From the sequence record SRR9188677_180: DNA of 35,865 nt. The stretch is one strand, 5' to 3'. Position numbers and translations under genes: made by a program. A model generated the notes under the pieces. It ran no database searches and was not told the origin of the DNA. It saw only the letters and a list, made by a program, of their open reading frames with translations. Positions 31,373 to 33,269 of this stretch are shown here, one piece after another; within the stretch, counting starts at the first letter, position 1; each line of letters begins with the position of its first letter.

Positions 31373-31607
31373 AATTCAGCGAAATTGTAGCCAATCTACG
31401 ATCTTATTAAATCGCTATAACATATTAATCAGAAATTGAAGAATATTTATTTGTATGCAACTATTTTTAAATTAAAGACAACTTTAAATAAATATTTTTT
31501 TATAAATTTAATGAAGATAACAATCAGTTAATCAAATACCTAAGCTTAAAATAAAACTTAGGAGAATGCTTGTTTGTGAGTATATTTTATTAATTAAACA
31601 ATAATTA

Positions 31608-31682
31608 GGTTGCTTAGGACTGACCATCCAATTTTAGTGACAAATTTCAATGTGGAGTCCTGATACCACAAAAAAACGGGAC
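31608..31682 (+). ncRNA. candidate structured 5' leader RNA (two hairpins plus alternative pseudoknot)
   Basis: GGTTG/TGACC hairpin with loop CTTAGGAC; TGTGG/CCACA hairpin with loop AGTCCTGATA; downstream A6-CGGGAC. A GC-enriched island in a very AT-rich intergenic region. Confidence 0.45.
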
Positions 31683-31724
31683 ATAATCAACAATCCTTAT
31701 CATTAAAACTTAAATTTTATTAAA

Positions 31725-32015
31725 ATGAGTACATTATCAAATACCACTTGGACAATCAATTTAGCATCAACCGGAAGTGTTACCTTTACGTTTAATGAAA
31801 ATGGCACTGCCTCAGCTGGAGGATCAATAGTTTGGTATTGGACCGAAAGTCCGGATGGAAGCTGGATGGTACAGACCTTAAATCCTAGTTTGCAAAATAA
31901 TGTTTCAATGGTCTATTTTGGAAAACATAGTGGTGGACAGGGTAATGGCTATTTCACAAATGGTTGGCAAGGAGCTTTAGCACTTCTACAACCATTCACA
32001 ATGAATAAGAACTAA
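31725..32015 (+). CDS. hypothetical 96-aa beta-rich, Gly/Trp/Asn-rich protein
   Basis: Clean ORF with an A-rich start context and its own terminator. No signal peptide and no family that I recognise. Confidence 0.7.
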   Translation: MSTLSNTTWTINLASTGSVTFTFNENGTASAGGSIVWYWTESPDGSWMVQTLNPSLQNNVSMVYFGKHSGGQGNGYFTNGWQGALALLQPFTMNKN

Positions 32016-32034: not shown

Positions 32035-32061
32035 CAAGGTATTGCGATCGGCAATACCTTG
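32035..32061. terminator. hairpin between convergent genes
   Basis: CAAGGTATTGC-GATCG-GCAATACCTTG, a perfect 11-bp stem. Confidence 0.7.
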
Positions 32062-32066
32062 GCTAG

Positions 32067-33269
32067 CTAAAGTTCCATTAATTTCTCTAAATGATGATAA
32101 CCAATCCCAAAATAAGTTTTTGTTGCTTTAATTTGTTGTAAAATTTCTTTCCTTTTTCCGCTTTCAGCTTTAGTCTTTAAGCTTTCAGCCCTTTTTACTC
32201 CAACAACCAAAACATTCTTCGGCGTATGCGCATCAGATATAAATTCAAATACCTTAGTTTTATAGCCAAAGTATTCTAAAATCAAAGCCCTGATTCCATC
32301 GGTCACCATTTCAGCTTGTCGCTCTAAGAAAATCCCATATTTGGTAAGGAAAGACACATCGTTCTTCACTTTGTGCTTTTCCATTTCTCTTCTGATCTGT
32401 TTATGGCAACAAGGCGCCACAACAATTAACTCGGCACCTGCTTTAATACCTTTAAAAATCGCATCGTCAGTTGCAGTATCACAAGCATGCAGTGCAATCA
32501 ATAAATTAATTTCTTGTACTTTATAATCTTCTATCGTACCTTCTACGAAATGCAATTGTTTAAAATCAGCTTGCTTGGCAATATCATTACACAATTGTAC
32601 CATATCGGCTCTAAACTCAACACCAGTAACAGTTGCTTCTAATTTTAATTGTTGATATAAGTAATCATAAAGTGCAAAGGTCAAATATCCTTTTCCAGAG
32701 CCCATGTCAACAACATTCTTTATCGTTCCAGCTGGCAGCTCTTTAATCAACGAACTTAAAATCTCTACATACTGATTAATCTGCTTGTATTTATCTTGAG
32801 CATTTTTAAATACTTTTCCTTCTGCGTCAGTAATGTTTAGCGAATGTAGATAATTTGCATTAGCAGGTTTAATCAGCCGTTTCTTTTGCTTGTCATGTGA
32901 TAAATCAACCTTTAGTACAGCATTAAGCTGTCGCTCTCTGAGTGTTATTGCATCCTTTTTCTGATGTTCAATAACTACCTCAGTAGCAGTAGTAAAAAGT
33001 GTAGCAATCTTAAAGTCATTACTAATCAAGTTCATTACCAATTGTACACCCTCATTGATCGTAAAATTCTTAAAGATGTCTCTAGTTTTATATCTGTAGT
33101 TAAAAGAAAGCATATCAACACGCTTAATTTTTACAGGTTTAATGTATAAATTTTTAAGCTCCCTATCGTTACCTTGATAATTACCCAATGATAGTTTTAC
33201 CAATTTTTGATTGGTTACCGCTTGATTTAAAACTTCATTAAATTTGGCTAAAGCTTCGCTTGCTGACAT
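32067..33269 (-). CDS. class I SAM-dependent methyltransferase (Methyltransf_32-like)
   Basis: 'K.KQIN', 'VVDMGSGKGYLTF', 'ALHACDTATD', 'APCCH' and 'HTPKN'. Confidence 0.9.
   Translation of the reverse strand: MSASEALAKFNEVLNQAVTNQKLVKLSLGNYQGNDRELKNLYIKPVKIKRVDMLSFNYRYKTRDIFKNFTINEGVQLVMNLISNDFKIATLFTTATEVVIEHQKKDAITLRERQLNAVLKVDLSHDKQKKRLIKPANANYLHSLNITDAEGKVFKNAQDKYKQINQYVEILSSLIKELPAGTIKNVVDMGSGKGYLTFALYDYLYQQLKLEATVTGVEFRADMVQLCNDIAKQADFKQLHFVEGTIEDYKVQEINLLIALHACDTATDDAIFKGIKAGAELIVVAPCCHKQIRREMEKHKVKNDVSFLTKYGIFLERQAEMVTDGIRALILEYFGYKTKVFEFISDAHTPKNVLVVGVKRAESLKTKAESGKRKEILQQIKATKTYFGIGYHHLEKLMEL
32147..32195. repeat. heptamer tandem array inside the methyltransferase CDS
   Basis: CTTTCCT TTTTCCG CTTTCAG CTTTAGT CTTTAAG CTTTCAG CCCTTTT. 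Confidence 0.7.

Follow-up and report, generated by a model that had tools for sequence, protein, structure and literature searches.

What kind of RNA, if any, is encoded in the leader of a near-orphan gene on a 35,865-nucleotide (nt) stretch of DNA from sequence record SRR9188677_180 (hereafter the window)? A first-pass annotation, made from the letters alone, singled out positions 31608 to 31682 as two hairpins, the second of which offers its loop to two mutually exclusive partners, and read the arrangement as a riboswitch or antitermination signal of no recognisable family. All coordinates and complementarities in that annotation are correct. The identity of the element is another matter: the flagged stretch belongs to a known kind, being a diverged, partial and pseudoknot-less leader RNA of the DUF805 type preceded by the core of a companion module. 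We regard its homology to the DUF805-type RNA family as very probable.

Hairpin 1 pairs GGTTG (31608-31612) with TGACC (31621-31625) through two G-C, one A-U and two G-U pairs, and hairpin 2 pairs TGTGG (31651-31655) with CCACA (31666-31670) around the loop AGTCCTGATA. Within this loop, GTCCTG (31657-31662) is complementary to TAGGAC (31615-31620) and, separately, to CGGGAC (31677-31682). The element contains 41.3% G+C, compared with 22.5% in the remainder of the 492-nt intergenic region, and ends 42 nt before the ATG at 31725; the description of a G+C-enriched, structured RNA element in leader position is borne out. Only hairpin 2 exceeds chance. It corresponds to helix P1 of an Rfam family, in the relatives of which the outer pairs show covariation.

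That family is DUF805 RNA (RF03081, clan CL00115), the sole Rfam match at E up to 0.05 in the 35.9-kb window, with E values of 4.4e-5 in a local scan and 0.0012 over the whole window. The match takes in hairpin 2, the A-run and CGGG, and the second helix of the model is flagged as broken. The element therefore has a recognisable relative, contrary to what had been supposed, and its novelty is diminished to that extent; yet the score of 38.4 bits lies below the gathering score of 51.1, and no Rfam family reaches its gathering score anywhere in the window. DUF805 RNA reportedly belongs to the candidate structured RNAs that Weinberg et al. described in 2017; the main text of that paper (PMC5737381) does not name DUF805, and the authors' own description of the motif may overlap with the present observations. 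No functional study of it was found in the literature searched, which took in this main text.

A 30-nt core pattern, namely P1 with its loop, a short gap and AAAACGGG, occurs in at least 123 genome loci when each prokaryote species is represented by a single genome. Nearly all of the matches listed are labelled Bacteroidota, Ignavibacteria or Kapaibacteria, and a few metagenome-assembled genomes (MAGs) bear other labels. Named isolates with a match include Algoriphagus, Rufibacter, Thermonema and Mesohalobacter. When 20 pattern loci were scanned against Rfam, 18 were canonical DUF805 RNA with scores of 66-92 bits. The remaining two (locus labels here begin with L, genome labels with G and contig labels with C) are L087, with 50.1 bits and cut off by the end of the locus, and L032, with 38.5 bits and a 3' part as degenerate as that of the window.

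We then aligned the window with 75 diverse pattern loci and with 20 copies taken from gene arrays, 96 sequences in all (alignment A1). P1, P2 and the pseudoknot are together 92.7% paired, and the covariation score is 0.174. Shuffled alignments give 0.108 +/- 0.006, none of 500 attaining the observed score, and sliding the partners yields 0.082 at most. P1 is 92.4% paired, with G-C to A-U changes (its outer pair, column 6:23, is GC in 86 sequences, AU in 7 and GU in 2), and encloses a 10-nt loop of consensus AGWCCRGANA. P2 is a GGC/GCC helix of three base pairs (bp) with a loop of about 11 nt, the inner pair of which is CG in 78, UA in 7 and UG in 4. The pseudoknot pairs CCGA in the P2 loop with a downstream UAGG (89.6% paired), again with C-G to U-A changes: one pair is CG in 79 and UA in 8, the next CG in 65, UG in 18 and UA in 6, and a third AU in 77 with four other standard pairs besides. 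Array copies carry CCUGC with GCAGG at this site, fully compensated. The nested structure of the Rfam model does not include the pseudoknot; its covariation support comes from A1, and an independent mutual-information scan of 119 loci returns the same pairs.

Since this covariation includes many U-G and almost no C-A combinations, the DUF805-type element is a folded RNA. The aligned sequences show a canonical molecule with an architecture of P1 with its near-invariant 10-nt loop, an A-rich linker (8-9 nt in 146 of 179 relatives), CGGGG (170 of 179), a small P2 and an H-type pseudoknot between the P2 loop and UAGG. The spacer from UAGG to the ATG has a median length of 20 nt (interquartile range 19-22, n = 137) and is 58% A and 28% U, and the distance from CGGG to the ATG has its mode at 44-50 nt over 119 loci. 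The fold thus ends about 20 nt before the AUG, followed by an unstructured A/U-rich spacer, with one copy per gene and the genes often clustered. Its two domains also occur apart, because there are 5'-only copies (the window, L032, L051, L052 and L067) and 3'-only copies that lack P1 (L170 on G001:C50, L171 on G003:C74, and positions 2389-2456 of L032), the latter scoring 30-33 bits and standing at the usual distance before a gene.

How much of this architecture does the window keep (Table 1)? P1 and its loop agree with RF03081 except for one departure at the R position of the loop. The A-rich linker and CGGG follow in place. A P2-like helix would need a shift of 1 nt, since relatives have four G at a place where the window has three: in the Rfam and MAFFT registers two of its three pairs are broken, whereas a shifted GGA/TCC helix is predicted in both the minimum free energy (MFE) and centroid folds of the window RNA. 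From P1 to CGGG the window is identical to the family consensus at 25 of 31 positions, compared with 14 of 27 in the P2/pseudoknot part, and this uneven divergence argues against uniform neutral decay.

Table 1. Coordinates of the leader, its parts, the gene that it precedes and related gene arrays (window positions unless contigs are named).
Feature	Position	Strand	Remark
RF03081 sub-threshold match, full extent	31647..31713	+	38.4 bits
P1 hairpin (hairpin 2)	31651..31670	+	5 bp, 10-nt loop AGTCCTGATA; Rfam alignment, A1
A-rich linker (A6), then CGGG	31671..31680	+	pattern common to at least 123 genome loci
Possible P2-like hairpin, GGA 31679-31681 / TCC 31694-31696	31679..31696	+	12-nt loop; predicted, with 1-nt register shift
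Degenerate 3' part and A/U-rich spacer	31681..31724	+	pseudoknot strands absent, length to ATG kept
Core of conserved upstream module, TAGGACTGACCATCCAAT..GTGACAAA	31615..31644	+	overlaps hairpin 1 and the kissing partner
Hairpin 1	31608..31625	+	possible in the short form of the module
Near-orphan open reading frame (ORF), 96 amino acids (aa)	31725..32015	+	served by the leader
Arrays	G006 contigs C317, C181, C513, C158, C497 (L257-L260, L078-L080); G008:C48 (L261)		small genes, own DUF805 RNA each

The sequence upstream of P1 has relatives of its own. In a subset of loci about 100 nt upstream of P1 are also conserved, and a metagenome scan for the composite of module and core yields 85 loci, 65 of them distinct, with labels almost all from Bacteroidota or allied groups. 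Together with the 123 or more genome loci, these confirm the earlier expectation that such elements recur before diverse accessory and orphan genes across Bacteroidota. In its dominant form the module runs through GTTATGGGCAAGTTTAAAA, GGTCTGCGAAAGCC and AAAGGGCTGACCACCCAATGTGACAAAAAA in that order. A profile made without P1 from 62 other loci matches 31615-31644 with 14.2 bits and an E value of 0.0011 over the whole window and both strands; this is the best match in the window, on the correct strand and 7 nt before P1, and the next best has an E value of 0.68. The module core GGGCTGACCACCCAA..GTGACAAA, defined as lying 17-45 nt upstream of P1, is represented in the window by this match. Its 5' part, of the GTTATGGGCAAGTTTAAAA or GTTATGGGCAAG type, is absent upstream of 31608, and a first profile that included this part found no window match at E below 1. 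A scan of 20 loci against Rfam returned nothing for the module at E up to 0.1.

Since the module profile matches 31615-31644, hairpin 1 and the proposed kissing partner lie inside a second homologous module. Three bases stand on either side of its CTGACCA loop. Most loci have GGG/CCC there; the window shares the compensatory variant GGA/TCC with L041 and L179, L192 has GGG/TCC and L048 has AGG/CCT, and about five loci are mismatched. In long-form relatives the GG of GGTC pairs with a nearby GCC and not with GACC (variants are GATC..GTT in L182 and L198, ..ATC in L233 and ..GCT in L236), so hairpin 1 is possible only in short forms like that of the window. The GACC arm of hairpin 1 was fixed by the search pattern, which leaves no variation visible there. 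Two further observations concern the longer surroundings. A long conserved non-coding module about 100-250 nt upstream of P1, of the form TTGACAGGAAAG..GCTCCGAAATC..GTTATGGGCAAGTTTAAAA..GGTCTGCGAAAGCC..GGGCTGACCACCCAATGTGACAAAAAA, is found in L124/L129, L125, L127, L128, L131 and L172-L256, and a second type of long upstream module carries ..CGACACAGCGGACAGACAAGAGAACCACCGACA...

Taking both modules together, we consider it somewhat probable that the whole of 31608-31724 is the 5' leader of the orphan gene and descends, as a reduced variant, from the Bacteroidota DUF805-type leader RNA. Several observations weigh against this reading. The Rfam score is sub-threshold. Position 31661 in the loop is T, where 178 of 179 relatives have a purine, and AATCAACAA and CATTAAAA stand where relatives have the pseudoknot strands CCGA and UAGG. 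One contig from a related strain shows A31665G, at a position that does not vary in A1; the change hints at relaxed constraint, although it was seen in that contig alone. None of 14 named control genomes, B. thetaiotaomicron among them, holds a copy of the family. A search with the Bacteroidota -7 box consensus as generally known finds no such box in the window intergenic region and, over 170 instances, no sharp positional peak. Finally, the role proposed below for the family is drawn from position, spacer composition and gene diversity alone.

The eroded pseudoknot, the loop T and A31665G favor a rival explanation, in which a former full DUF805-type leader is now a decaying relic with an inactive remainder and with extra complementarities that are by-products of drift. 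The same account takes in the low identity of the 3' part, the partly kept upstream module without its GTTATGGGCAAG-type 5' part, and an ordinary folding energy, the MFE of 31600-31730 being no better than that of shuffled sequences (z +0.51; 139 of 200 shuffles fold as well or better). It fits less well with a 5' module that has held its identity directly beside a 3' part near background, with the recurrence of the 5'-only architecture before genes in at least four unrelated loci, and with the preserved canonical spacing to the ATG, the CGGG-to-ATG distance of 44 nt lying inside the family mode. As an account of the whole leader we judge decay to be unlikely. Some remaining function of the window copy is possible, with a chance approaching even at best, and for this copy we give about equal odds to a reduced 5' module that is still active and to a relic in decay.

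Does the loop of hairpin 2 alternate between partners, as the first-pass annotation proposed? In that model a riboswitch or antitermination switch would exchange the upstream kissing partner for an H-type pseudoknot with the 3' CGGGAC. Within the window both pairings are complete, over 6 bp downstream and, on inspection, 8 bp upstream, and loop lengths of 1 nt, 3 nt and A6 would sterically fit an H-type pseudoknot. Folding the window RNA in isolation gives a prediction dominated by the loop:CGGGAC helix (centroid -7.1 kcal/mol, z -0.17), so that a window-specific pseudoknot appears physically possible, with no evolutionary backing. Relatives could make a minimal version of 2-3 bp from their near-invariant loop CC and CGG, bases that do not vary. 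Such complementarity is not rare by chance: the upstream length of 8 bp occurs in 4.3% of 5000 dinucleotide shuffles, an upstream run of at least 6 bp with at least three G-C pairs in 12% of shuffles, and a downstream run of at least 6 bp with at least four G-C pairs in 13%.

Comparison with relatives supports neither pairing. Of the pairs in the proposed pseudoknot, T61-G78 can form in a single relative out of 179 and T58-A81 in 63, and the other four fall on near-invariant bases. Projected onto A1 the helix is 72% paired, column 15:36 is paired in the window row alone, and three of the alignment columns that it uses are the 5' strand of the covarying P2. Among 70 composite loci, three of the six kissing pairs can be made in only 4, 12 and 20 loci, and the kissing pairs show no covariation. 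Four loci besides the window have A at the key upstream position, and three of these are mismatched; any covariation of the upstream GGA is with the nearby TCC on its 3' side. Outside the window neither tertiary pairing is complete. A terminator scan finds none 3' of the element, and antitermination is consequently without basis; the downstream genes, moreover, are too diverse for a metabolite regulon. We therefore consider the switch highly improbable, and return to a reduced DUF805-type leader as the preferred reading.

A sigma-70 promoter scan gave 5 candidates, compared with 5.1 expected from shuffles. The leader also contains an 18-codon upstream ORF, MWSPDTTKKRDIINNPYH, at 31650-31706 on the plus strand, the ATG of which is formed by the base preceding P1 and which ends 18 nt before the main ATG. 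It is probably incidental, because most relatives have no ATG there.

What, then, do DUF805-type leaders serve? A Pfam family could be assigned at E up to 1e-5 to 47 of 118 downstream proteins, and these families are very varied: Lambda_Bor (6), OMP beta-barrel (5), SCO4226-like, DUF5684 and Por_Secre_tail (4 each), and TRL, bPH_1, MIP and DUF1761 (2 each), with the eponymous DUF805 occurring once. The leaders thus serve very diverse small genes, often envelope or orphan genes. Five genomes hold one or two canonical copies each. A Prevotellaceae-labelled MAG (G006) holds 25 matches in co-directional arrays on short contigs, and two further genomes have three and two copies in tandem. Products of the array genes include DUF805, sulfatase-modifying-factor-like, WG-repeat and RHS-repeat proteins. 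Spurious ORFs of the form ..VETRDH.KNGA.. arise from the array RNA itself.

These arrays bring in a further rival, namely that the leader, and chiefly its upstream module, is a boundary or recombination site of mobile gene cassettes and acts as DNA, not as a functional RNA. The tandem arrangement with one copy per gene speaks for it, as does the sharp 5' boundary of the upstream module at GTTATGGGCAAG, often after locus-specific inverted repeats; this 12-mer is also present, with no DUF805 RNA beside it, at a few intergenic sites elsewhere. In one genome (G004: L016/L124, L129 and about 10 other sites) the similarity of many short ORFs (86-133 aa) to tyrosine recombinases is confined to the C-terminal end, and two of these fragments, at contig ends, sit directly upstream of DUF805 leaders (L016 and L129). 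The region from -139 to +960 relative to P1 in L009 contains an insert of 1055 bp, which begins with the upstream module and holds a DUF805 RNA and a 90-aa gene. A duplicated segment, at least 130 nt long, stands on both sides of the insert and is made up of the upstream flank and initial 44 nt of a tRNA-Thr(TGT) gene; on the downstream side it runs on into the intact tRNA. ARAGORN finds no tRNA beside the other 18 of 19 loci. Recombinase-associated gene arrays with repetitive intergenic sequences (rAID-1) are described for Bacteroidales by Ross et al. (10.1101/471110).

The DNA-level reading does not account for the excess of U-G over C-A combinations, which implies that one strand folds, or for the fixed 20-nt spacing to the ATG, which points to mRNA. 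No integrase (PF00589) is found on any array contig of G006, G007 or G008, the IntI profile TIGR02249 gave only sub-cut-off XerC/D-like genes, none of them adjacent, and the window itself is without such a boundary or repeat. We find this reading quite unlikely. An integron cassette array, in particular, was considered and rejected on the integrase results just given, which speak to that gene only; integrons are reported as rare in Bacteroidetes (PMC9024848).

A joint reading can be framed, in which small genes acquired horizontally by Bacteroidota carry with them a portable, modular leader whose constant part is the DUF805-type RNA, the orphan gene of the window being one such lone cassette. 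This reading would account for singletons and arrays, for interchangeable upstream modules and for the recombination-like 5' boundary, and the leader would give each incoming gene a ready-made translation or expression signal. In the window, P1, the A-run and CGGG would then be autonomous, and a strengthened loop-to-3' pseudoknot would replace the lost 3' domain. This synthesis is doubtful, though less so than either the switch or the DNA-level boundary.

For the family we tentatively propose, at a little under even confidence, a cis-acting post-transcriptional role at or near translation initiation. The RNA may be a portable expression module on the mRNA, a compact fold or factor-binding site placed at the 5' edge of the ribosome landing zone, about -20. 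The window copy would be a reduced variant in which the 5' module perhaps still works alone. Alternatives for the family are a riboswitch for a global signal, an element of processing or stability, and the cassette boundary discussed above.

Bacteroidota make little use of Shine-Dalgarno pairing. If DUF805 RNA is a portable translation or expression module, it would bear on how acquired genes are expressed without much of this pairing and on the construction of expression tools for Bacteroidota. The new leads on DUF805 RNA are the fixed distance of about 20 nt, the diversity of the genes, the per-gene copies in arrays, the separable domains and the upstream companion modules. For the window alone the result is modest, namely a reduced copy before an orphan gene.

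The protein encoded by that gene falls, among 5.8 billion sequences, into two clusters only, its own and P0002, which is 76% identical over the full length. It has no Pfam family and no relative in the metagenome contigs searched. The gene thus agrees with the range of genes that other DUF805 RNAs precede. The Protein Atlas offers weak leads only, with scores up to 0.90 (lipocalin-like, 0.85-0.86). The leader is present as a single copy in the window, between dnaK and a methyltransferase gene. The window RpoA is 63-66% identical to those of five named Bacteroidota genomes, and the methyltransferase, used as a query, has no match in five other Bacteroidota genomes. Two inverted repeats lie nearby. 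Where the orphan ORF (stop at 32015) and the methyltransferase gene (stop at 32067) converge, a perfect 10-bp hairpin at 32036-32060 (AAGGTATTGC / GCAATACCTT, 5-nt loop) looks like a bidirectional terminator without a T-run and is not called by the terminator scan. Within the dnaK-orphan intergenic region, a 24-nt stem-loop at 31539-31562 (CCTAAGCTTAAAATAAAACTTAGG; nine pairs, 6-nt loop) scores as terminator-like on the minus strand and could belong to dnaK regulation or mark the end of an upstream transcript.

How does the window leader compare with known systems? The small H-type pseudoknot riboswitches of the preQ1-I type, which have an A-rich loop 3, share with it on paper the geometry of a short hairpin whose loop can pair with a 3' segment beyond an A-run. 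The loop-to-3' helix of the window, in contrast, is not conserved in relatives, there is no coherent regulon, and no Rfam riboswitch family matches the window at E up to 0.05. The rAID-1 arrays, as described by Ross et al., resemble the DUF805 arrays in arrangement: both have co-directional small genes of low G+C content with a repeated intergenic sequence before each, and two DUF805 loci have an upstream tyrosine-recombinase fragment in the same orientation. By comparison with the rAID-1 arrays, the DUF805 array contigs examined differ in carrying no recombinase, the DUF805 family in being absent from the B. thetaiotaomicron control, and the window in holding a lone copy. The closest comparison remains canonical DUF805 RNA. 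The window departs from it in score (38.4 bits, where the gathering score is 51.1 and canonical loci reach 66-92), in lacking the strands of the P2-loop:UAGG pseudoknot, in a P2 that could be retained only with a 1-nt shift, and in a T in place of the loop purine of its relatives; its downstream gene is not DUF805, as is the case in 117 of 118 relatives. What it shares with that family is P1 with the conserved loop, the A-rich linker, CGGG, a collinear length to the start codon, the 5'-leader position and a Bacteroidota-type context.

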